DNA of 56,669 nt, counting the filler, from Sphacelaria rigidula (Eukaryota), in NCBI GenBank assembly GCA_964200075.2. It is 7 parts of 7 records of this genome, joined end to end, with 100 filler letters (N's around TTAATTAATTAA, not from the genome) between each part and the next. Parts side by side here need not be neighbours in the genome. Positions count along the whole stretch, not along the records: positions 24,331 to 32,340 come from CAXNAA020012656.1; 6 more parts are not named here. The stretch is one strand, 5' to 3'. Below, in pieces: positions 569-48,660 of this stretch; within the stretch, counting starts at the first letter, position 1, and each line of letters starts with the position of its first letter. The translations under genes were made by a program, and so were the position numbers. Below the pieces are notes generated by a model that ran no database searches, was not told the DNA's origin, and saw only the letters and a list, made by a program, of their open reading frames with translations.

Positions 569-3500
569 CTGCACGGCGGAGGGGAAGAGATGTGCGACAC
601 GTTGATCGGACAAGAGCGGGACGTCTTGTCGCTGCTGTCGTACCTGTTCTGCGCATCCCCTTGAAAATCCATGGGAAAGGATCGGTTCGTTCACCTCGAA
701 GTGGTTCGGTGACTTCTTTCTAAGCGCAGCAGCTCCAGCCGCGAAAGGAGATTACGGTAAATGTTGCGTCGTGCTCCCAAAGCGTCTGCCTTAGAAATGC
801 CATCAAGACCCACAAATGCAGTGGCATAGAACCCTACACCAGAACAATCAAAATGGCATCACAAAATGTCAGCGTAGTCCGATTTTCGAGTACGTGAATA
901 TTCCTCCAACCCGTCGCCAATTTTCAGGGTTGAGACACACTTGGTTTCAAATGCGAACCATTGCACTCGAATCTTCGAAATGGCAAGACAGTTCCGGGGG
1001 CTTGCCAGCGTGCTTTGCATGTGCTCTTGCTCAAAGTCGACGACATTGATGCCGATTTTTGATCTACCAGAGCATGTCTTACTCAGGGCATGCTCTGCAA
1101 TCCGTTTGGCCGAGAGTACTCGGCCAGCCTTTGGTTGCGGTTCGGGTTAGGGCTAGCCTCAGGGTTTGACAAAAGCAAGCATGTGTCAACTATGGAATGT
1201 AGAAAATATGATTAGGTAAGGGGTTGGAACGGAATTAGTTCCGACAACAACACGTTTGCCTACCCCTTCCTGACACAGGCTACAAGACGGCAATTCAAAG
1301 TGTAAAATGACTCGGAGTTAAGGTGAGATCAACGATCCTGGAACTCCTTCACGTACCGTGATATATCGGGGACAGTTGTACGACAGCTGTCGTTCCACTA
1401 GCGCGGCCTTGAAGGGGTCCGGCCTCCTCACCATCACCACAGGGAAGCCGTCCACACCGATTACCCCGGTCGGTCCTTGCAAGGCGACTTTGAGAGAGGG
1501 TCGCTCAGAGAGCACGCGTCTTCTGCCCACTCTCCACCGCAAGTAGCGGCCAGCCCACCGTACTCGCGTCTGCCAGGACAAACTGCCCAAGAACGAGTCA
1601 TGTACGGGGATAGGGCCAAGGATCGACTTTGGGTGGACCGGGGGGTGGTATATTCCTCACTCTCAAAACACAAGTGCTGTGTTTCGCAACTTCAAAGGGT
1701 GAAGGGCGGGGTCTTTGATCGGGAGCAAGTCCGGTCGAAGCAAAAACAGAATGTCCTGAGTCCGGGAACAAGAAGCGAAATTCAGTGGGATTATACGGGC
1801 ACAGCGGATGGTGACGAGGGCACTCCCTCAGCCGACTGCTACTCACTCTCCCTTAGCTTTTGACTCCATCAACAGCTAACATCGTTTTCCCACCTTAAAG
1901 TGTGAGTTATGAGGGGTCGAGAGATCAGGCATAATGAAACCGCGGAGTTCGCTGAATGCCCGAACGTCAAGTCACACCAAGTGCACGTATCACGATTCCG
2001 TTACTTTGCCATCAGCGAGTTGGGTGACATTCCATTGACGGCATTCAAGGTTGGGAGTGATGCTACGGTATGGGTGCACAAATATTTTCTGAGGTTGGAA
2101 TTGTTAGGAGCCCCTCACCTCATCCAAAATACGACTGTTGAATAATGTGGGAGTACGCCAGGATGATGATTCTAATCTGCCAGGGATATCCCGAATGAAA
2201 TTTCGAACGGGGATGCCTTGACCCATGTTCTTGTGCATCTAGAACCCTTAGGAGCCCCTGATTCAGACAAGATTTTTCGCAAAAAGTGCGCCCCTACCGC
2301 AGCATTGCTCTTGGGCAATCACGGAACCTTCGGCGAACATAAGGCCGTGTGCGGCATTTTCTCACAGTGTCATCCCCACGAAGGCGGTGAGCGCCTGGAA
2401 GATGGTGTCTTCGTCTCGCATGCCTACCACGACTCCTCGATATGCCTGTCACAGAGGTGCAGGGACAGCTTAGCACGAAGCTGTGTGGGATCAGCAAGCA
2501 GGAAGTACGTTGAGATGGCCCCAAAGCAAGAGCGTACATAACATCGAAGAGAAGTAGTACGCAATCACCAACCGACATCACTACTCCATTTCCTCTCGAT
2601 CGATGCACCATTAGGTGCGCGCGCGCAGCGTTCGAGGTCGCCACAGGTACCCAGTTGATCTGATTAGAACGGCGTCGGCCCTTGAAGAAAAAAAACACCT
2701 CCCTGACATCTCAGGGAACGACAAACGCCTATTTCTCGTGAACACGAACCGACCACGCCAAACAACACCCAACGACGCGCATACATCCTCCCCCCATTGC
2801 CTTACATAACCCACCTCGAGAAGAATAGCAACAACCACGTTGAGCAGCAACACCACGCCTAAAACCTGGTAAAAGACCACCAGCACAACGCCAAGCTCGG
2901 GTTGTACTTCCAGGATCTCGGGATAGAAGCTCTCACCCTCTCCCAGAGACACCCGAATCATGCTCTCCAAAGCATCCCCCAAGCGCGTGAAATGTGCAGA
3001 GCCTTTCCCAACCAGTAACCATGTCACTTCGACGAACACAGCCAACACCTGGAGTGCGGACACCACATATTCGGCTAGCATTACATATAGCATTGTTTTC
3101 GTTCAACTCGCATCATGAGCAACGTGCCTCGTTTTTGTCCGCTCCGACATGCGCTGCTGCCGAGATAGTGTTTGCTATTCCTTCTTTGTTTTCGCCTGAT
3201 GCTATCTCAGTAGTACGGAAGCAGGGGCTGGGGCGAGAAAACAAGACAGCTATCACTGTGAACTCTAAATAGGCAGAGTGATAGATCCGCCGCAGGTCTG
3301 TGTTACTCTCGTATGGGAATCCTGTGTGTTTTGTGCTAGACTATCGAAAAGAGAAGTGAATCGGCGCACGTTCAACCGCGCAAAAGACGAGAGGCAGAAA
3401 AATAACGTTTGGGATTCCTTGCTAGTTTTTGCTCATGTAGGTTTCTTACTTTACGAAGATCATGGACGCTGAAAGGTCTTTGATCTTACGTTCCAATAAA

Positions 3501-8010: not shown

Positions 8011-8110
8011 NNNNNNNNNNNNNNNNNNNNNNNNNNNNNNNNNNNNNNNNNNNNTTAATTAATTAANNNNNNNNNNNNNNNNNNNNNNNNNNNNNNNNNN
8101 NNNNNNNNNN
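8011..8110. other. Artificial contig linker
   Basis: N44-TTAATTAATTAA-N44 (stops in all six frames). Confidence 0.98.
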
Positions 8111-16120: not shown

Positions 16121-16220
16121 NNNNNNNNNNNNNNNNNNNNNNNNNNNNNNNNNNNNNNNNNNNNTTAATTAATTAANNNNNNNNNNNNNNNNNNNNNNNN
16201 NNNNNNNNNNNNNNNNNNNN
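16121..16220. other. Artificial contig linker
   Basis: N-run with TTAATTAATTAA. Confidence 0.98.
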
Positions 16221-24230: not shown

Positions 24231-24330
24231 NNNNNNNNNNNNNNNNNNNNNNNNNNNNNNNNNNNNNNNNNNNNTTAATTAATTAANNNNNNNNNNNNNN
24301 NNNNNNNNNNNNNNNNNNNNNNNNNNNNNN
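24231..24330. other. Artificial contig linker
   Basis: N-run with TTAATTAATTAA. Confidence 0.98.
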
Positions 24331-25987
24331 GGGGGGGGGGGGGTGTTGTGGGGGGGGGGGGGGGGGTTGGTGTTGTGTTTGGGGGGGGGGGGGGTGTGGG
24401 GGGTGGGGGGGGGGGGGGGGGGGAATGCGTGGTTTGGAGCTTCGTAATGAGGATCAGTAGAAGCCTTTCTAGCCCTAAGGACCTCAGAGGATTTCGGAAC
24501 GGTTTTTTGCAGGCCATTTACTGGCCCACGTTTGATATTTGTGTATTTAAATTTTGTGTGGGACCTCAATAGGGCATAATGAACTAAACAAAAGTGATCA
24601 GTATTTTTGTTCTTCACTGGTTTGGAGCGTTTTAGTATGGTAACGACCATTTTTTTACGAAAACGCCCGAATCTTCTCCCCAAAAAGATGAAGGCTATTT
24701 TTTTTCAATTTAGTGTACGTTATCCCCGCGTGCTACCAGCCTTGGCTTGTTCACATCCCCCTCCTCACGGAGATTTTGCTGCTGCATGTTGCAGATGAAT
24801 GGGGTTTGAATGTCAGCTAAGATTTTCAGCTCCTCAATGTGAGGGCTCATATTTCCTACAATTTTCAACATTTTGAAGGAGAATGAAGTCAAATAACGCA
24901 ATTTTGCTGGCCTCCGGCGGCGCTTCCGCGGGACCCCCTCACCAGCCGGGGGGAGGGCGTTTGCGGTTTCACTTCGCCGCTCGCCGCCTATGTTTTCCAG
25001 TTAATCTGTGAAGCCGATTAACTGGGGAAACATCGGTGTACCGGCCTCTGGCGCGGCCAGTTGAAACTTAACTGGCCAAAGCAGCTAGCTAGTTCACAGG
25101 CCTACAAAATACAAATGATGACCACTACTACCATCTGCACGCAGCCTAGATGATGGCCTTAGGTGTACAAACTCCCAGGATTTTTTCATAGACCAAGGTG
25201 GGACTTTGAAAACTGACTTCTCTGAAGAAGTCACTGGGGAAAGTCGTCCGTCGGGAATTTTTTCAGTGGTAAAGAAGGGGCCTTAATCGTCGCTAATTTT
25301 GTGCCGTGAGATGATGCGGTTTACATACCTTGTTCAAAATCGGGTGCCATTTGGATTTTGAACGAATCCCAAAAAAATGGCATCATTGTTTTTTTCAGCG
25401 AACAAACTTATGCAGCTTGGGATTAATGATTAGTACGCCCACGAACGTCGTCGAATTGATGTAAAATGCACCAAGAAAAACCGTATGCCCCAGGGCTATC
25501 AATTGGAACACCGCGCCTGAGCAGCGAAGCTGCACAGCGTGCGGACAAGAGTCCATTATTTTTGCAGCAAGCACGGGCCGCCCCCAACCCTCCATATCAC
25601 TAGGCGTTGCCTCCCTTTGGAGCAAACTATGTGAAGCCCATGTAAGACCGCGCGCCACGGCAGAAGTTCTTTCCATGCTGATGTTTTTTCGCGCTTAATA
25701 TGCTTTATTGCGCAATTATTATGTGAAAATGCGATGTGTCCCGTGTGAACATTGGTCGGGATGAACCGCCAATTCCTTGTAAAGCAAAACGTCAAGAAAA
25801 GTATCGAAGCTCGAGGTTTTTGTCTGAGAACCCCTCCATCACAGAAATACGCGAATCGCCCCGAACCTAATATCAGTCACGAAACTGGATAGCTTGAAGA
25901 CATGTCCGAGCCGTGATGGCAATGAGTCGACCCCAGCCGAAGGGGTGTTCCAAAATGATGCAGTGAGCTTCGAGACACGTTGCTATT

Positions 25988-27075
25988 CTACCCCATGTCG
26001 ACCCCAGCCGCCTCAACCACCGCCGCAAAGTCCGGAAACGCTGCTAGCCGTTTGGCATCATGCAATCGCCACAAAAATCGCACAGGTCGTTCGCCAGGCC
26101 AATGGTCGGCGTATCCAAGTCTCCCGCAGAACACGTACGGCTCGTTAGGGAGCCGGCAGAAGAGTAGCACTGTGTCGCTACCGCCTGATGGCGACTGTAT
26201 ACATGTGAATGTTGGAGCAGAAATTTCTGCAGCATTGTTTGTTGATGACGACTGCCGTTGGTCATCGCCAGACGACGCGAGCACAGGTGCTCGAGTAGCA
26301 CCAGCTGGCTTTGTTGCCAGCAGCTGTTGTTGGTCTCCTTCGCTTATTTCATCCCCTGTTTCACTGGCGCGGCTGTTGCCGCCGCTACGGCTAGTCCTAG
26401 TGGTTCTTAATGATGAAGCTGTGTCTGGCGTCTCGTCGGCGACAGGATCTGGAGTATCACCCCTTTCACCTTTTGCTCTTGTCAGTTCTCTCTCCGTTAG
26501 TGCCTCGGCATTCCCCGCCTTTATTACGGCCGGATGTTTTATCGGTCCAGCATCATCGTCCACCAACGTGTCTTCAGCCGTCTCGACGTCGCACTCGCTT
26601 CGTATGCCGGCCGTCATCTGAATACTCCTAGCAGGACCACTACTCCCGCTGGTGTCTGTAGCGGTCGCAGCGCTACTACAACGCCACTGCGAGGAGGAGG
26701 AACCTTCGGCTCCTGATTGCAGCAATCTCCTGACCGCGGCCGTCTCTGCAGTCATTCTACTGCCGGCGAACCACGTCATTCGCAAACCTCCGTTCGTCTG
26801 CGGCCCTCCTGCGCCGCCGTCACCGCCTGCGCTCTCTTCAGCGTCGGTGTCGACGGCCTCATCGCCACCAGTTCCGCGCTCCTTGTTCGATGCCGTCCTG
26901 CCACCGGTGGTGATGGTGTTGGTCGCAGCAACCGCTGTAGGCATGCCATCAACCTTGCCATCTCGTGCCTCAAGTCGAACCGAGCATTTCCGACCTTGGC
27001 CTTTTTCCGTTCGTGCTACTGGTGGTAGCCCGTCCCTCGTTCGCTTCCCTGGTGACACACAGAGTTCTTGTGCTT
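25988..27075 (-). CDS. Terminal exon of the DUF3427-like gene
   Basis: Long open frame (ORF 25988-27058) with an acceptor at 27076 and a TAG stop. Confidence 0.85.
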
Positions 27076-30000
27076 CTATCAGAGAAAATAATAATTAGCA
27101 TGACACGGGAAAAAGTTGGATCGTACGAACTGTCACGGACTCCGGTACGAGGTAACACATATTCTGTGTGAAGCTTAATTCAAGCCAAGACTTGAAAACG
27201 ACGGACCTGAAGCGTCTTGCTTTTATTCGCCTGTTAAATCGGCGTCATGTTGACCTGAGAGTTGACTCAAGGCGTCCATCTGTGGACGCTGAAAGAGCAA
27301 ATAAGCTGTTACTCCAGATACGAGTATACATCAAGGTTACACCTCTGCAGGACTTACCCGTCGACATGTGCGTGTGTCCCATATTTACGATCACAGTTGT
27401 CATATTTCGAACGGATCCACGGTTAGGACAAATCATCACGACTCCAATTCACCAAATTCACGATTTCTTCGGCCTGACTGCCCGAAATGGAGAAAAAACT
27501 TGATCGCTGGTCAAAGGGGTGTCCACGCAACTTTTGCGCCATTCCACGAGTCTGGGCTGCGTGTACCTGAGTTGCAACGCTGCAATAAAGCCTAGGGATC
27601 GATTCGTCACGAGTCGACTCATTATACTAGAACCAAGTAATTTTCAGACGAATCATTACTTGTCCGACCCTTGAACGGATCCAACAGAAGAAAAACGAGT
27701 AGGCTCACCTAGTTCCGTAGTCTGCTGAGGTGCCGAGTTCCCCGAAGCGTCGCAGTTGTAGGCGCCATTTCCGTCCTCGACCACCGTTCGTTCAAACAAG
27801 TTGGTGTAATCGCCACCTTTGTCTCCAACATTTACCCACAAGAATATGGCGTTTTTCCATTCAGTTATGCCCGACATCCTGCTTGCGAGCAATAGGTGAA
27901 AAAGGAAAAAATACGAAGCGGCATCCGGTGTGTGTGTGAGAGAGAGCAACATTACCAGACACGAAACATGAGGGCATAGCCTAAAACGAAAACGTGAAAC
28001 ACAGGCTGCTCACGTAATGTCTTGTAGCGAAGAAAATTACGCGTCTCATGGCGTCACGATTGCACGTTAAGTGTACGTATACCGTACTAGACTTCGGCCA
28101 CATGCACTACTAGAGTGTTCACACTTGAAGGAAACGACAACGGGTACGCGCTATATGCGTAAGCTTTCGACTCAGAAGTCGATTAAAGCACTCCAGAGTG
28201 ACCGTTCTGGCGAATCCCGCCCACTGAACGCTGTGGAATCCGGCCGATGCACTGCCGAAGTGCGCATAAAAGTGGACGGGTCAGTGTAAAGATGCCCTGG
28301 ACAAAATGTGCTACGTGAGGTACCCTTTTTTGGTGTGGGACATAATTTTCAAATCCTGTGCTAGCATACTGGAGCTACATCTGAAAACTATTTTCATCTC
28401 ATTTCACGAGACATCTGTTTGGCTGACGACGATGGGATCTTCACGCACGGCAACTTCATGTACACGTGGCTGTATACTTGCGTGTGCGTATTCATGTATA
28501 TAAATCTTGTGCTCCACAACTTGAAGTACATGAAGTCCGTCAAAGCAGTCTCGGGTTTGTTTTTCCTGCCTTAACCCTCGAAATTCTGGATTTGTTTAGG
28601 GTTGGAACACGTTTTGCTGACCACGATGGGGTCTTCACCCACGGCAACTAAATGTACACGTGGCTGTATACTTACGTATGCGTATTCATGTATATACATT
28701 TTGTGCTCCACAACTTGAAGTACGTGAATTCCGTCAAAGCAGCCTCTGTTTTTTGTTCCTGCCTCCATCCTCGAAATTCTGGATTTGTTTAGGGTTGGAA
28801 CACAATAAATTGCGGGGAATGGTCAAGTCCATCGGTTGCACTTGCAGTGTAAAAAGGATCAGTCGTGCGGAAAAATAGCCGAAATGTGGTGGTTGTGGAA
28901 AAAAACAGTTTCTGCAAAATCGCGGCGAGGGGGTCCGGCGAGATGTTGATCATTAGTCTGGATATTCTTCAGTAATATTCGCTGCAGCGTTCATGTCGGC
29001 TTCTAGTCGAGTCATTTTTCGCTGTTCTTCGAGACCTTCTTATAATGTTTTCCGTCCCCTTGCGCCAGGTACGTCTAATTGGCTACCACAGGTAGCGTCG
29101 CGGTGGAAGACTCCATGTGCCACCATCGAATAACCAAGCAGAAAACGGCTGTATCCAGGACCAGAATTTCTCAATGTTTTCCCCACTCTTCACCCTTTTT
29201 GTGCAACCGTGGACGCATAGGGCCTGGAAAAAATTAGATAAACTGCGTTTCGCGTCAGATGTGTGGACTCTTGCCGAGGAACATTGTCACCATAGCAGCA
29301 GCCGCATCGTTTTTTGCTAGACCTTGCCGCAGGTCGTGCTGGCGGCGCATCAGTACGTTTGAGAGGCCTGAAGACTTTTAGTTTGCTTCCAAAACCCGGT
29401 GATTCAGACGGAGGCGACGCTGAACTGTGATCAACAACTGTTTGATCACCAACAGGAGCGTGGTCGATCGTGATAACACCGTCGGGCTACGTTCACGTGG
29501 TACCTTGAAACAAGTCAGTATCCGTCGACGATGTCGACAACCGCCCACAAGCCGCTGTTATGATGAAATTGAATTTAAACATTGAGTGGAGAGTAGACTG
29601 TTCGACTGAAATGATCAAGGTGCAACTCCGTTGAACGTTTGACGTGAGACTCGGGCGAACAGGGTGGGTCTACAGGTGGAAGTTGAACATTCTAGTTGGA
29701 AGCGGAACAATGTGCTTGACGTTAAAAAATCAAGCCCAAGGCGACGTTGGTTTTGGGCCTTCGATTGGAAGGTCTGACTCGGAAGTCGACCTGAACGTCT
29801 AGTCTTCACGTGAAAAGCAGGGAGCTCGAGTGACCGTCTGACATCTATTGCGAAAGTCCAACTCAAAGGTCAAACTTCCGCGTAGATGCAGTCTTCACTT
29901 ATAAGATCCAGGTCGAACTTTGCGCTTCACTCGAAGTCTGTCCTAAACCAATGACATAGGAATTGAGTGCTTCACCGAAACGTTGCGGGCTTTTTGGCGC

Positions 30001-30728
30001 TTGTACTGGTGAACGCAGATTTCATTTTCGGAGGCCCGCGTTTACTTGACCCGATTGTTTCTCGCCGCAGCTCATGTGAACCGTGTACATTAGCTGAGTT
30101 CTTAATAGGATTTTCTGCGTAAAGCTCGACTTCTCGACGAGTGCGGAACCAATCTGGTTCCCAAAGGTATCCTCGAGTGCCTTTGCCTTCGCCTGCGGAG
30201 TGATACCGCCATGTGCCGGCTGGCTTGTCGGTATGCGAAGTAAATCTTATTCACAGCGCTTGGGCCTTCACGCATCTGGCCGCTGTCCTACAACGACCAA
30301 TTGCACGGACCAGAATCAATGACACCTGAGAAGGAACTTCGGTGCTTATGCAAGAAGTCACCTGTAAACTCGCCTAGATCCTGGGGTATCTGTTTAGCAA
30401 CCCTGTTCACGCTGTACGCACCTTGTTCAACTATTACATAACCTACGGACACCATGAGATGCGGATATCGTTCACCAGCAGCCACATGTGCAGAGAAGCG
30501 CCCAAAGAATGTTCGTTATGATAACGACATAGCAGTTCAGTTGCAAAACAGAGGATGTATGTGTACGGCTTTGCACTGCTGCGTACCAGCATGCGTTTCC
30601 TACTGTACCTGCTGAACTTGGGTGGAACTGTCTTGGATGAAGCCCCCATGACCGCATCCTTGCCGAAGGAAGGAAAACGCCTCCCGAGATATCGCTCCAT
30701 CAGCAATGCCACATCGCATTCCAGGTTT
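25988..30728 (-). CDS. Spliced gene (5' incomplete) with a DUF3427-like domain. Exons: 30609-30728, 27709-27878, 25988-27075
   Basis: Phase-consistent junctions (AGCAG|gtacag ... cag|GATG; CTAG|gtgagc ... gatag|AAGCA). Conserved-looking blocks: LGRRFPSFGKDAVM, PKFSRMSGITEWKNAIFLWVNV...DYTNLF, GGLRMTWFAGSRM, VLLFCRLPNEPYVFCGRLGYADHWPGERPVRFLWRL. The domain name is from motif recall, not a search. Confidence 0.8.
27418..27673 (+). mobile_element. MITE family A copy in an intron
   Basis: CACGGTTAGGACAAATC ... CTTGTCCGACCCTTG; perfect 8-bp TSD AACGGATC (27410-27417, 27674-27681). Confidence 0.9.
27709..27878 (-). CDS. Internal exon of the DUF3427-like gene
   Basis: aagcag|G ATG TCG...GAA CTA G|gtgagc; MSGITEWKNAIFLWVNVGDKGGDYTNLF... 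Confidence 0.82.
28422..28803. repeat. Tandem duplication, ~195-bp unit x2
   Basis: GCTGAC...TAGGGTTGGAACAC repeated from ~28422 and ~28616. Confidence 0.85.
29000..29980 (-). pseudogene. Probable KDZ (Kyakuja-Dileera-Zisupton) transposase relic
   Basis: Frameshifted blocks in KDZ order: KFDLDLI, GGCRH, AMVTMFLGKSPH..ETQF, VHGCTKRVKSGENIEKFWSWIQPF (cf. GExxExxWS). Confidence 0.5.
30609..30728 (-). CDS. Internal exon of the DUF3427-like gene
   Basis: cattag|A AAC CTG...AGC AG|gtacag; NLECDVALLMERYLGRRFPSFGKDAVMGASSKTVPPKFS. Confidence 0.75.
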
Positions 30729-31589
30729 CTAATGGCAAAGCAGCAACATGGGCGGGTGGGGAAGCAGATTGGATGTACGTATACTACAACGACGCAGTCT
30801 ACATGAAACGTACTACTGTTCACAAAACGTCTTCCTCAGCACAAGCCGCTGGCAAAAAGGACCGCGCAGTTGACCAAATTATCTCGAAACGTGCGACTGA
30901 CGGAGAGAGTGATGACTCAAGCGTTCGCTCTCTGTACTGTAACAGCCAGGCGCTCACGTCTTTTGGTATGATTCGTACCGCCCTACAGCATTCATTACTT
31001 TTTTCGCTTGCTCATTTTCCGATCATACCTCCTCTCAACCGTTCCCCGTTCCGTAGACAAGTCCGTCCTCTCAAGGAATCGATCGGCCCAAATTCATCCC
31101 GGTAAATACCTGACATTGTCATCATCAAGGACTGGATCAGCACCCCGCGCCTTGCCGACTTTCCGTCAATGTTCCACAAGCACATGCACGATGTACACTC
31201 GCGTGTGGAACTCCCCACTACAAAGCAATAATAGCTTACATATGCGCCATCAATACTCAAACGATTTCGCATCATAAAACGCACAACTCAACCAGCAAGT
31301 GGCACAGCACAGGCCAAGAACGCGACACCACAGGAAAACGACGAAGTTTGGAAATATTTTGGGTGACCGGCCGAAACCGTAACTCTCCAAAGAGGGCATG
31401 ATACAATTGTACGAAGGAGGCATTTACGTTTCTGGTGCGCTTCAAAATAGTCATGTGAGGGGTCGCCGACGTCTGCACTTACCGCAGACTAAGGTTAACC
31501 CCATCCACGAGCGAGGTACCACGTAACAGGCGAGGTAACACCGGCAAACAGATTATTTGAAAGAATGAGATTCACCACCCCTCAAAATG

Positions 31590-31980
31590 GTGAGACGCCC
31601 ATGAGGAAGTGTGAAAGCCGTGGCCGCCTCTCGAAGTGGCGATTCCAGAAAATGAACTAACTCATTGAAGGCTGACATCCAAATACAAGATAGTCAGTAC
31701 ACTTCGGGCCGAACAATCTTGGCAGGATGCAATTCACTCTTCAAGCGACTTGCCGAACACATCACGGCGCTTCTCGCTTGGTGATTGATTGCGAGCCTGA
31801 TCCGGCGAAACCCGGCGTGCTCCGTCCCGGCTTTGTAGGGATGCAAGGGCAATGGCCATATGACTACGCCATTCAAGATCTTTAGTACACCCCAAAGGGT
31901 CTTGCTCCGTCTTGAAAGGGATGCGTTGCCGATGGTCCAACGACTGAGGCAAGCAACAAATGAGGACGCCACCCCCCCTA
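31590..31980 (-). repeat. Family G copy
   Basis: Reverse complement aligns with 15655-16050. Confidence 0.8.
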
Positions 31981-32340
31981 ACCCCGAAACAGCGCTTTGC
32001 CTTACCTAAAACTGATCATGACCGATGACATTCTCTCCCGTACTGACACTTCTTTCGTGACCTTCGCCAACTCTATACGCCCACAGTGGTATGTGAAATC
32101 ACCCTTTTGCCTCGATTTTGAGGTGACGGACTCAGCAGCGAAAGCCGTTTTCGCCCAGAGCCGCGAGCGCACAGAGTTGGTCAAAGTGGCTGATGGGTCA
32201 TTGACATGATCGAGGGGCCATGGGCCAGAAAAACGTCATTGGTCAGAGCCATCCTACGATAGCGGGGGAGGTATTTGGTTGCACGAAAAAAGAAGCTGAT
32301 TAGTGTGTCAGACATCCTTCCACACTTGCGTTGCGCTTGT

Positions 32341-32440
32341 NNNNNNNNNNNNNNNNNNNNNNNNNNNNNNNNNNNNNNNNNNNNTTAATTAATTAANNNN
32401 NNNNNNNNNNNNNNNNNNNNNNNNNNNNNNNNNNNNNNNN
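32341..32440. other. Artificial contig linker
   Basis: N-run with TTAATTAATTAA. Confidence 0.98.
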
Positions 32441-34339: not shown

Positions 34340-37300
34340 ATGGTACTTCGTCGGCTCCGTAGGTTAGGTCGGCTGCTGGGCCATAGCCTTTAGTAGTCTC
34401 GACCGATGTTTATAGTTGTGAAGATTTTTCCGTAACCCAACACTTTTTGCAACAACGTAACGCTCTATTTTAGGTCAAGTTTCGTCTGGTTCGTCCATCT
34501 CTGGTAGAGGTATCCCTTTGCCTAAAAACGACTCGCCCAACTTATCGAAATCCGGTGCTGGTGGTGTATTTCTAGGGTGATAATTCTTCAAGTGAGCGAG
34601 GCGTACTGACACTTCTTTAGAGTCGTCGTCTATTTTGATTCTGTGCACAACCAGCGATCGCCTCTCCCGTAGAGTGAAAGGTCCTCTCCATGGTAATTGG
34701 ATTTTCGGGTCAGGCCCTTCTGAGTTCTGGTATGGTCGATACAGGAGTACCTTTTGACCGGGTTTGAACACTGGGAACGACTTTCATTTGTTGTTTTTTT
34801 GTTTTCTTGCTCCTTCGCTCTCTCCCGTAGAGCTTGTCTCGCAAGTTCAAATACCGACTGTAATTTTTCCCGTTTTCCTTGGAAATTCCTTGGGTGTTGC
34901 TGCTTGGCTTTCCTCAGGGGTGCCGAGGATGATGTTAACTGGTAATCTGGGCTATCTTCCGAACAATAGAAAGTACGGTGTCTCCTCTACAGTGTCGTGA
35001 TAGGATGTGTTGTACACCATTTGGATGAACGGAATCATGGATGCCCGATTTTTGTTTCCAACCGACATATCCATAGCTAATATCGCGTGATAGTGGAGTG
35101 GACTCTTTCCAACACTGAGTTACCTTGCGGGCGTAACGGCGTCGTGTGAGTTTTATTGAAACCCAGCTCTTGTTGCAGTGCGTACATTAGCCTGTTTTCA
35201 AATTCGGCTCCTTGGTCGGAATGCAGTTTTTCCGGAATGTCAAATGTAGTAAATAAACACTCTATCAATGAGAGTTTTGGCTATTGACGTAGCCTTTTTA
35301 TTCGACGTTGGAATGAGCAAAGCATTCCTTGTGAGGTGGTCCATTATGGACGGTACATATTTACATACTTCCTCTGTTTCATGAGTCTGTGCAGTTATGG
35401 ACGTTTAATCGTTCGGGTGTTTCAACGCTGACGATCATCCTACAGTTGGGCTCGTCAGAGAAATAACGCGCAGACAAAGCTGACTAGGAAAAAGAAGAGA
35501 ATAAAAAACTTGTTTTCACTTCTAAAATTATGTCAACATATACCTCATTTTGGCCCTTTTGGTCCACATATACCCCAATGTTGACTGATTTTGGACGTTT
35601 TTACGCCGAGCACTCGCGATTACATGCTGAAAAATTGTTAGATGGAGCGTGCGTAGGTAGGTTAACGTCATGGAGATATTCAAGTCAGTGGTGGTTTTGC
35701 GGCTTTCACATTTTTTTCACAATTTTTCGCGATTCCCGGGTCTCCTATGCTTTACTGGGAAAAAGAGCGAAAAATGGCCATACTTTGACCGACCTACTTT
35801 TTTTCGGCCGCGATGCTGCACGGGTCAAGCGCCCACGTTGTAGAAAGAGTGTTGTTTCTAGCTCAAAAAAAGCCAACGAACACAACCAAAAAATCGAAAA
35901 TCAAATCGGACATTGTGAAGGGCTCGTAAAAACATAACTGCACATACTTATGAAACAGGGGAAGTAGTACTTCAGCGTTTGACATCGAAGCCGTTTTGTA
36001 TTCGACTAGGTCTACCCGACACTTTTTCGTATGGCCGTTCTACCGGAACACGTCCCTTTGGCAATTTCGGCCGGTTGTGGGCCGTTTTTCGGCGTCGGCA
36101 ACCCTGACATAGGGTGTGTACTCCAGTGCTTGCTCTTTTTGCACTTCTTTGCGGTCGACTGGCATGAAGACGTTCGTGGCGCTTACGCTTACTGATTTCA
36201 CAGTGAACAGCTCTCTGCCAGTTCGTACCGGCTTTCAATCATCGACCCGCTTAGCTGATATTTGAAACTGGCGTTGTCGTGAGAGGGTGTCCTGAATGAC
36301 ATGAAGTTTCTCTGATCTGTGTCTGACCGTGAAAGTCATACGATTGTGAAGCGATCGCCCAAACGGCTCAACATGTTGCTCGTATCTTACATTGTATACA
36401 AATATCGAATAGCTGCATGATCTGTTACACACGTCAAGTGACGGCCACATAAGAACGGTCTGAAATGCCGCATGGCTAGTACGACGGCATACCATCCTTT
36501 CATGGTGGGTGAGTAGCGATAATGAGCGTCGTTGAAACGTTGACTGAAAGTATGCTACGACTACATCATCGTCGTCTTTCTTCTGGGACAGATACGCTCC
36601 CGCGCCTCGGTCTGACGCATCGGCATTTATCGTCAAGTCTTCAGTGAAATCTGGAAGATGAATGACGGGCTCCTCGGCCATTAATTGTTTGATTTTATCC
36701 GGAAGCCTCATCATGCTCGGTATTCCAGAGTTTTGACATTTGTTTCGCCGCTTCTTCCTTCGTAAGATTTACCGGATCTACATATCCAGGTGCTAAATCT
36801 AAACTAGATGTGACCGGATGATCGTTCAGGGGGATTTTAGACAGTTTCGATTTGTAATTACCAGTCACTGCTTATAAATTGTCATGTATTCTGGCAGCAG
36901 GTTGAACATGTGTCACGTGGAATGTGACGTTACCGTTTCATTGGGGTACCGCGCAGAACGTAGCCTGATATGAGTCTCAAACAAGTTGAGCTTCATTTTC
37001 GACGATTATTTACCCTTTTCCGGTGTATCGCTTTTTCGACGGCTGTTATAAAGGCTGCTTGGGAACCAACTCCAATCGTGTTCTTGTTCAGTTTCTGATT
37101 TATACTCGTACATACTTTCACGTCACAACTGGGGGCTGTTTTGGTGCCCCACCGGAGGAGTTACTGTATTGACTAGAAAACCCGCTTTTCTCCGATATCT
37201 TTCACCAGAGGGTTGGCATTGTTTCTCCATTGCAAGGGTACTGAGATGTGAAACATTGAACAATCTGCAGTTTTCAAGTCCTCTCAACTTTGTGAGCTGA

Positions 37301-39735: not shown

Positions 39736-40059
39736 TTTCGACGATAGCCCTCCCAAAACCAGCCCAAAAATGTCCCGAAAAAAATGATCATACAGCGCCC
39801 GGTGTTTGGGTTCAGGCTGCATGAAGCGCCTCATATGGGCGACATTGGCGAGAACGACCCCACGCGTGAAGTTCCAGCTCCTCGTTGTGCTTGGCTTTTT
39901 CCATTTCGATTTACGTGAGACTTTTACCAGGCACTTTGCGGGGGGGGGGGGGGGGCTATCGTAGAAAGGGTCCAATGAATTTTTTTCTTTCTGGGATCTT
40001 CCCTTCCCCCGACCGCCCCGGGGTACGCTGCCNNNNNNNNNCTGGTTTTTGCTTTCCTT

Positions 40060-40450: not shown

Positions 40451-40550
40451 NNNNNNNNNNNNNNNNNNNNNNNNNNNNNNNNNNNNNNNNNNNNTTAATT
40501 AATTAANNNNNNNNNNNNNNNNNNNNNNNNNNNNNNNNNNNNNNNNNNNN
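40451..40550. other. Artificial contig linker
   Basis: N-run with TTAATTAATTAA. Confidence 0.98.
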
Positions 40551-48560: not shown

Positions 48561-48660
48561 NNNNNNNNNNNNNNNNNNNNNNNNNNNNNNNNNNNNNNNN
48601 NNNNTTAATTAATTAANNNNNNNNNNNNNNNNNNNNNNNNNNNNNNNNNNNNNNNNNNNN
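48561..48660. other. Artificial contig linker
   Basis: N-run with TTAATTAATTAA. Confidence 0.98.

Follow-up and report, generated by a model that had tools for sequence, protein, structure and literature searches.

A 56,669-nucleotide stretch of DNA from the brown alga Sphacelaria rigidula (assembly GCA_964200075.2), here called the window and the frame for all coordinates below, carries on its minus strand, between positions 25988 and 30728, what is most likely an intact, spliced nuclear gene for a stand-alone, non-catalytic protein, to judge from its reading frame and splice borders. The part of the protein that is seen most likely forms one complete SRA-type β-barrel, closest to the bacterial DUF3427 domain, on the evidence of a structural model of a compact relative. 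On balance, the protein probably recognises a modified DNA base by flipping it; among the mechanisms considered, this is the best supported.

Fold, family and relation to DUF3427

The relative used for modelling, P0051, has 154 residues and is colinear with the window protein, to which it is 56–57% identical in two aligned blocks and 40% identical in a third. By BLASTP, exon B of the window gene (the exons are listed below) matches P0051 residues 45–69 (E 7e-10), and exon C matches residues 96–142 (E 1e-16) and 76–100 (E 0.004). With a 130-row alignment, P0051 was predicted at a predicted local distance difference test (pLDDT) score of 95.8 and a predicted template-modelling score of 0.90. A Foldseek search of the PDB with this model gave a single match at E ≤ 0.001, the restriction enzyme SauUSI (7clg_A, E 8.7e-5). 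VIA-align superposed the model on SauUSI residues 803–953 with a Z score of 13.0 (2.7 Å, 127 residues), followed by SUVH5 (Z 11.4), SUVH6 (Z 11.1), UHRF1 and UHRF2 (Z about 9–9.6), and the modification-dependent nucleases TagI, ScoMcrA, AspBHI, LpnPI, MspJI, AbaSI and PvuRts1I (Z 7.5–9.4). Among the matches listed, the first 46, which end at Z 7.5, are without exception SRA-type; the one after them stands at Z 4.8. A second VIA search, independent of Foldseek, found 15 of 48,161 chains at Z of at least 5, again all SRA-type. SauUSI residues 806–953 are the target-recognition domain of that enzyme and have an SRA fold, according to the structural part of PMC7913695; the relation of DUF3427 to the PUA superfamily was left open by an earlier screen, in the section of PMC6765204 that treats it. 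The sequence-only reading of the window had foreseen a PUA- or SRA-like fold, and an SRA-like fold is what is predicted, for the compact relative and not for the window protein itself.

That reading had also grouped DUF3427 with PUA-like domains. Some PUA-like domains bind RNA, and the protein might read modified RNA rather than DNA, in the manner of EVE, YTH and other PUA-like domains. The structural neighbours point the other way. The 15 matches at Z of at least 5 are SRA-type domains of DNA-binding proteins, and EVE, YTH and ASCH do not occur among the matches listed in either VIA search (the best 50 of each), which is not proof, as a distant relation is still possible. We consider an RNA ligand very unlikely and continue with DNA.

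A word-indexed search with the C-terminal 89 residues of the window protein returned 14 brown-algal orthologues, one of them 98% identical; they include a "conserved unknown protein" of 573 residues from Ectocarpus siliculosus. Run against 1.84 billion representatives, a profile of the 14 sequences matched 631 of them at E ≤ 0.001; 322 reached E ≤ 1e-10 and 25 reached E ≤ 1e-30. Many of these matches fall in three separate stretches and some of the proteins are just 119–170 residues long, so that the same blocks exist without the inserts that interrupt them in the window. The taxa named are Ectocarpus species, Chrysophaeum taylorii, Epipyxis, Phaeomonas parva and Bathycoccus prasinos. Since other ochrophytes and Bathycoccus carry the family, it is not specific to brown algae. 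A modified-base reader domesticated in an alga had been suggested from the sequence; the reader-type domain stands, and the restriction to an alga was too narrow for a family that is wide among protists.

For a reference set of true DUF3427 domains, we took proteins matching PF11907 above its gathering cut-off (27.7 bits); within a single bacterial class, the Bacilli, 59 of the 201 genomes contain such a protein. From the 30 best matches, one with an internal stop was dropped, and the C-terminal 300 residues of the other 29 were aligned. When the eukaryotic alignments A2 and A4 were compared with these 29 sequences by hhalign, the probability was 96.3–96.4% and E was 1.2–1.6e-9 over 96 columns; the reversed bacterial alignment, used as a control, gave E 0.4–0.47. 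The insert-bearing brown-algal alignment reached only E 0.21 against the same set. PF11907 is the sole Pfam family matched by more than one of 130 eukaryotic relatives, 12 of which match it at E ≤ 1 (best E 1.3e-5); in a set of 45 relatives there was one match at E ≤ 0.01 (E 0.001), its 18.9 bits lying under the cut-off. The eukaryotic profile in turn matches bacterial proteins from two phyla, in 21 of 401 genomes for one and in 4 of 401 for the other. All four bacterial matches that were scanned are PF11907 proteins (46–105 bits) with a NOV_C (PD-(D/E)XK nuclease) or helicase domain, and two bacterial matches lie on the same DNA as matches of PF11907 itself. In the ESM Atlas, the clusters nearest to P0051 are DUF3427 (0.96, 0.95), and bacterial SRA clusters come next. 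The SAD/SRA (YDG) sequence family is absent among the 25 Pfam families listed for the 130 members, and the open reading frames (ORFs) of the window have no match to it. At the level of the family, the DUF3427/SRA assignment is supported.

MMTAG2, the only match in sequence searches of the PDB, was set aside as non-significant (E 1.2).

The predicted pocket and its possible ligands

In SauUSI, the modelled pocket for 5-methylcytosine (5mC) is lined by Tyr831, Phe841, Ile842 and Trp868, with Tyr831 contacting the methyl group; Asp858 makes hydrogen bonds to the cytosine that are specific for the base, and Met829 enters the duplex (PMC7913695, in its description of the pocket). The bacterial DUF3427 alignment has conserved residues at matching offsets, namely Tyr at 0, Phe at +10, Val or Ile at +11, Asp at +27 and Trp at +37. 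Because these offsets reproduce the SauUSI numbering, the hhalign columns were taken as residue equivalents. The columns come from MAFFT and hhalign mapping; hmmalign of the bacterial matches left too few aligned residues in this region. The equivalents are as follows.

Tyr831: Tyr in 22 of 29 bacterial sequences; Ile or Val in 105 of 130 eukaryotic sequences; Ile (SGI) in the window
Phe841: Phe in 29 of 29; Trp or Phe in 127 of 130; Trp (FLWVN) in the window
Ile842: Val or Ile in 29 of 29; Val in 124 of 130; Val (FLWVN) in the window
Asp858: Asp in 27 and Glu in 2 of 29; Asn in 130 of 130; Asn (YTN) in the window
Trp868: Trp in 28 of 29; Trp in 130 of 130; Trp (MTW) in the window

Four of these window residues are encoded by exon B: the Ile of SGI, the Trp (27838–27836) and Val of FLWVN, and the invariant Asn of YTN (27802–27800). 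Judged from the aligned columns, the hydrophobic and aromatic lining of the predicted pocket is conserved, and the polar and methyl contacts differ universally from those of SauUSI. An aromatic pocket shared among relatives had been part of the earlier expectation, and three of the five SauUSI positions do keep their character (127, 124 and 130 of 130). In the two best-scoring bacterial proteins, an Asp lies 11 residues before the Trp, which is the Asn–Trp spacing of compact eukaryotic members.

We propose that the predicted barrel would bind double-stranded DNA and that one base would be flipped into a pocket whose walls in the window protein are Ile (SGI), Trp and Val (FLWVN), Asn (YTN) and the stacking Trp (MTW). 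A modified base so flipped would thereby be read.

The methylation background bears on what that base may be. DNMT1, DNMT3 and DNMT5 are reported to be missing from brown algae, which keep only DNMT2 homologues, and Schizocladia, their sister, is reported to have DNMT1 and about 80% CG methylation (PMC13076208, 2026, in the sections on methyltransferases); the term SRA does not occur in that paper. About 1.4% of cytosines are methylated in the Saccharina methylome, by the figure given in PMC6916402, and Mamiellophyceae such as Bathycoccus have lost DNMT1 and have DNMT5, by the passage concerned in PMC10538959. The lack of typical 5mC in Ectocarpus to which the sequence-only reading had pointed is consistent with the reported absence of DNMT1, DNMT3 and DNMT5. 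The family is present both in lineages with 5mC and in the lineage reported to be without the methyltransferases, where its blocks are still 78–88% conserved. Given the reported loss of the enzymes, the invariant Asn where bacterial and plant or animal domains have a base-contacting Asp, and the Ile/Val in place of the methyl-contacting Tyr, nothing obliges the ligand to be 5mC in its classical mode of reading. It may be 5mC or 5-hydroxymethylcytosine (5hmC) that is rare or foreign (viral), or some other modified base.

It is possible, though we give it a minor share of our belief, that the fold and the flipping are the same and that the base is no cytosine derivative at all, the pocket having been re-tuned to a thymine or uracil derivative such as 5-hydroxymethyluracil, to N6-methyladenine (6mA) or to a damaged base. 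The two residues replaced in the eukaryotic family have assigned base contacts in SauUSI: Asn stands in all 130 eukaryotic sequences where the bacterial ones have Asp or Glu, the position of the cytosine bonds in SauUSI, and the position of its methyl contact is likewise altered (PMC7913695, same description). The gene is moreover constrained in brown algae despite the reported loss of DNMT1, DNMT3 and DNMT5, and a PUA-related domain, that of ScoA3V, prefers 6mA (PMC6765204, in the part on that enzyme). Asn could, however, still pair with the N4/N3 edge of cytosine, by our own reasoning; the family also occurs in Bathycoccus, a lineage with DNMT5 and hence with 5mC available (PMC10538959, same passage); and no other modified base is documented in this analysis for brown algae. 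Any shift in specificity is best sought at this single universal substitution of Asp by Asn.

Several results weigh against a DUF3427-like, base-flipping domain in the window protein. At the level of sequence, the window ORFs gave no match to PF11907 in a Pfam search at E ≤ 10, none of five brown-algal orthologues matched it, and PDB sequence searches with the family profile, the brown-algal profile and P0061 returned no SauUSI or SRA chain at E ≤ 10. As it has no Pfam score, the window protein belongs to a remote branch that formally stands outside PF11907. The DUF3427 likeness first claimed is borne out by profile–profile comparison (E 1e-9) and by the fold of a relative, and not by plain HMMER with PF11907 on the window protein. 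At the level of structure, an AlphaFold model of the Ectocarpus protein P0011 with its inserts, built on a 14-row alignment, had a mean pLDDT of 35; because this insert-bearing model failed, the fold of the window protein is drawn from P0051. In the pocket, which was mapped by sequence-profile alignment and not by coordinates, two of the five SauUSI positions are changed (Asp858 to Asn, Tyr831 to Ile or Val), the position of Met829 aligns with a small Ser or Ala in the eukaryotic family, and the first insert separates the two main pocket residues and might influence the pocket. Finally, the reported loss of DNA methyltransferases in brown algae removes the obvious endogenous ligand (PMC13076208, same sections).

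The gene, its inserts and its surroundings

The coding pieces were delimited by a stop-to-stop scan, by tblastn with Ectocarpus proteins and by contig joints. All lie on the minus strand, as follows.

30609–30728, minus strand: exon A, 120 nt; tblastn with Ectocarpus P0011 and P0012 at 70–72% identity, contig pieces at 30608–30730 in runs X1–X3; acceptor CATTAG| and donor |GTACAG read from the sequence; codes the helical portion at the N-terminus of the domain (NLECDVALLMERYLGRRFPSFGK...PPKFS) and supplies the first two bases of an Arg codon
27879–30608, minus strand: intron 1, 2730 nt, GT..AG; joint in X1, X2 and X3, not in X5
27709–27878, minus strand: exon B, 170 nt; codes MSGITEWKNAIFLWVNV..GDYTNLF and the beginning of insert 1
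27076–27708, minus strand: intron 2, 633 nt, GTGAGC..GATAG, set by a contig joint; lies within the coding region of insert 1
25988–27075, minus strand: coding part of exon C, 1088 nt including the stop codon (25990–25988), from the ORF scan and frame check; runs from the remainder of insert 1 through block 2, insert 2 and block 3 to the C-terminal helices and the stop
25397–25987, minus strand: 3′ untranslated region, to the limit of the transcript-like contigs (25397–27075 in X3, 25489–27075 in X1)

Spliced by script, exons 30728–30609, 27878–27709 and 27075–25988 give 458 codons with a single terminal stop. The two end coordinates proposed in the sequence-only reading agree exactly with this structure, 25988 being the end of the stop codon and 30728 the first base of the upstream exon.

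The gene is probably transcribed, to judge from contigs of four coded runs (X1–X4) whose RNA label is a guess ("RNA?"), none of the listed runs that contain the stretch being recorded as RNA; contigs rather than reads were searched, and X1–X3 are all from one study. These four runs contain about 27% of the sampled words of 25900–31000, roughly the exon share of the stretch. In the region 24600–32300, one contig in each of X1, X2 and X3 spans exon C with its 3′ flank, exon B and exon A, with joints from 27075 to 27709 (633 bases skipped) and from 27877/8 to 30608/9 (2730 bases skipped). The intron-containing gene that had been proposed is thereby seen as GT..AG joints in all three RNA-like runs. 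Both splice joints are absent from a further run, X5, whose coverage of all 30 bins resembles that of genomic DNA. The contigs extend 647, 599 and 958 nt 5′ of exon A with sequence that lies outside 24600–32300; these unmatched extensions of 599–958 nt mean that upstream exons exist. The recovery of the 5′ exons, proposed with the sequence-only reading, did not succeed in the window: neither tblastn with the N-termini of four brown-algal proteins nor motif scans located exons for what in Ectocarpus are the N-terminal 172 residues, including a helix motif.

The domain is encoded in three compact blocks separated by two inserts, all on the minus strand.

27862–27794, minus strand: block 1, EWKNAIFLWVNV..YTNLF, read directly from the sequence
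26780–27793, minus strand: insert 1, 127 residues, coded by 27793–27709 and 27075–26780 with intron 2 between
26720–26779, minus strand: block 2, MTWFAGSRMTAETAAVRRLL (MTWFAGSRM..RRLL), with the invariant stacking Trp (26773–26771), a conserved Arg and a helix
26171–26719, minus strand: insert 2, 183 residues, between RRLL and VLLFCR
25991–26170, minus strand: block 3 and C-terminal helices, VLLFCRLPNEPYVFCGRLGYADHWPGERPVRFLWRL..VDMG, the predicted core β-strands of the barrel

Within block 3, VLLFCR..EPYVFCGRL..RPVRFLWRL lies at 26170–26063 (minus strand). All the aromatic-rich blocks quoted in the sequence-only reading were located in this way on the minus strand, and its estimates for the inserts, about 125 and 185 residues, come close to the 127 and 183 measured. 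Insert 1, between YTNLF and MTWFAG, is 60% Gly, Ser, Thr, Ala, Asp and Glu with one aromatic residue; for insert 2 the figures are 64% and two. The site of insert 1 is a hairpin turn between the Asn strand and the Trp strand, 6 residues long in P0051. That of insert 2 is the link from the helix (PV.QRLL) to the VLLFCR strand; it has 5 residues in P0051 and is variable in length throughout the family. Pairwise identity among the 14 brown-algal sequences is 88%, 84% and 78% in the blocks against 23% and 25% in the inserts. In the 12 sequences with a complete N-terminus, the first insert has 82–127 residues and the second 45–138; the range of the second rises to 182 when two N-terminally truncated sequences are included (all 14). 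The contrast in identity between blocks and inserts, together with the 631 profile matches, shows a pattern that exceeds chance. The two long stretches rich in Gly, Ser, Thr, Ala, Asp and Glu are most likely lineage-specific expansions of surface loops that leave the barrel intact, and their composition, poor conservation and low-confidence model suggest that they are disordered.

A role for the barrel other than base reading has to be weighed at this point. It could be a pseudo-reader, a scaffold or protein-interaction module that binds no base, with the function carried by the disordered loops and the N-terminal motif. Such a role would suit a stand-alone protein with no enzymatic partner domain, inserts that account for some two thirds of the portion in view, and the lack of conservation of the residue that SauUSI inserts into the duplex. 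It sits badly with the pattern of invariance, which over 130 sequences of distant protists falls on the pocket equivalents (Asn and Trp) and on core residues, and with inserts that are themselves poorly conserved and range from 45 to 182 residues. We think it unlikely and retain base reading as the preferred role.

The surroundings of the gene were scanned with Pfam in 83 window frames (87 of at least 110 residues, minus 7 in 25959–31102, plus 3 shorter retrotransposon frames). Only an ion-transport/polycystin exon, an RNase H and a weak integrase stand out, with nothing viral or defence-like nearby. The first of these, at 2614–3102 (minus strand), matches Ion_trans and PKD_channel at 25.9 and 23.2 bits, just above the cut-offs, and is probably a cation-channel exon. 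Remnants of a long terminal repeat retrotransposon with broken frames occupy 34475–36768 (minus strand), upstream of exon A and possibly inside a long 5′ intron; they include a reverse transcriptase RNase H at 36238–36768 (minus strand, E 2.4e-12) and a weak integrase core at 35077–35280 (minus strand, E 6e-4, below cut-off). At about 27170–27683, in intron 2, and at about 31539–32300, summed contig depth runs from tens of thousands to 1.8 million in all four runs, with neighbouring DNA at a depth of about 60–70 in X5; the two high-depth places, between which loose ends and odd joints are numerous, seem to share a high-copy repeat. Paired runs of N (44 + 44, with 12 between) recur at 8011–8110, 16121–16220, 24231–24330, 32341–32440, 40451–40550 and 48561–48660; their spacing of 8110 bases suggests fixed-step masking or scaffolding and not natural gaps, and exon A has one such pair 1.6 kb upstream of it. 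An extra 9-base N run is found at 40033–40041, and low-complexity sequence rich in proline or glycine (PPPPP on one strand, GGGG on the other) adjoins an N run at 24331–24440.

Retrotransposon remnants 4–6 kb upstream, high-copy repeats in intron 2 and upstream, and 5′ exons not found in the window are what a decaying fragment derived from a mobile element or virus, rather than a working host gene, might also show. We find this hardly credible for a frame that stays open over three spliced exons, is covered by transcript-like contigs and has orthologues conserved in brown algae and beyond. Nor did tblastn of P0051 and of the C-terminal 70 residues of the window protein against viral contigs return a relative, at a sensitivity suited to close relatives.

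Known systems and the place of the family

The closest known system is the SauUSI target-recognition domain of Staphylococcus aureus (PF11907, PDB 7CLG residues 806–953), part of a type IV restriction enzyme. It is the best structural match, has the same block order, shows profile homology at E 1e-9 and shares the Phe/Trp, Ile/Val and stacking Trp positions. SauUSI, however, is a protein of about 950 residues in which PLD nuclease, helicase and coupler are also present, whereas the algal protein has no enzymatic domain, is encoded by a spliced nuclear gene, carries two inserts of 127 and 183 residues, and has Asn for Asp858 and Ile or Val for Tyr831. The McaZI group, in which DUF3427 is joined to a PD-(D/E)XK nuclease (NOV_C/DUF3883), provides the top bacterial matches (41–42 bits, 105–126 of 161 model positions) with the identical spacing of 11 residues from Asp/Asn to Trp. 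The group is reported to bind 5mC/5hmC DNA and to restrict phage T4gt (PMC6765204, in the part on this group). It differs in its C-terminal nuclease, in the Asp at the contact position and in its location in defence islands, all three of which the algal protein lacks: the orthologues have no other Pfam domain, and the window scan found no nuclease or helicase fusion or defence context near the gene. The SRA (YDG) domains of SUVH5, SUVH6, KRYPTONITE and UHRF1/2 have the same fold as the P0051 model (Z 11.4 to about 9), and those of SUVH and UHRF proteins flip 5mC or 5hmC from duplex DNA, according to PMC7913695, where it compares them, and to PDB entry titles. Unlike them, the algal family has no Pfam match to their domain and no SET, RING, PHD or UBL partners, and the algal relatives have instead an N-terminal helix motif and a basic linker.

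A typical member of the family has 280–340 residues and consists of the N-terminal motif S.YE..R..NI.RN...L..LGL, a basic linker and the C-terminal domain. Most full-length relatives (P0030, P0032, P0044, P0077 and others) begin with the helix motif, which is followed by a basic stretch, RRS.R..P.Y. In Ectocarpus P0011, the motif occupies residues 44–62 and is the sole confident part of the low-pLDDT model. It has no Pfam family match, and in the ESM Atlas it gives weak leads (0.77–0.79), including a cluster that bears the name WD repeat-containing protein 76. P0038 (461 residues) appears to be a tandem module, with motif and domain followed by motif and a partial second domain. NCBIfam, run on the 130 members, gave nothing recurrent, and within the portions of the literature returned by our search there was no description of a eukaryotic DUF3427-like family.

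It is tempting to propose, as a tentative and so far rather doubtful extension, that this unnamed family of ochrophyte and green algae descended from DUF3427, the sensor of bacterial restriction enzymes, carries an invariant Asn in place of the cytosine-contacting Asp, and reads a mark other than classical 5mC.

With the present assignment, a protist family of 631 representatives that Pfam and NCBIfam have missed gains a name and a fold, and it connects DUF3427, the bacterial type IV restriction sensor, with eukaryotic nuclear proteins. Brown algae keep a predicted base-flipping reader with invariant pocket positions despite their reported loss of DNMTs. On the doubtful extension just proposed, the protein could serve brown algae without these methyltransferases as a sensor of non-self DNA, such as methylated viral DNA, or of an undescribed endogenous modification, and effectors would be recruited by its N-terminal motif and its expanded disordered loops. 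The family thus offers a handle on whether any endogenous or viral modification of DNA bases matters in brown algae.

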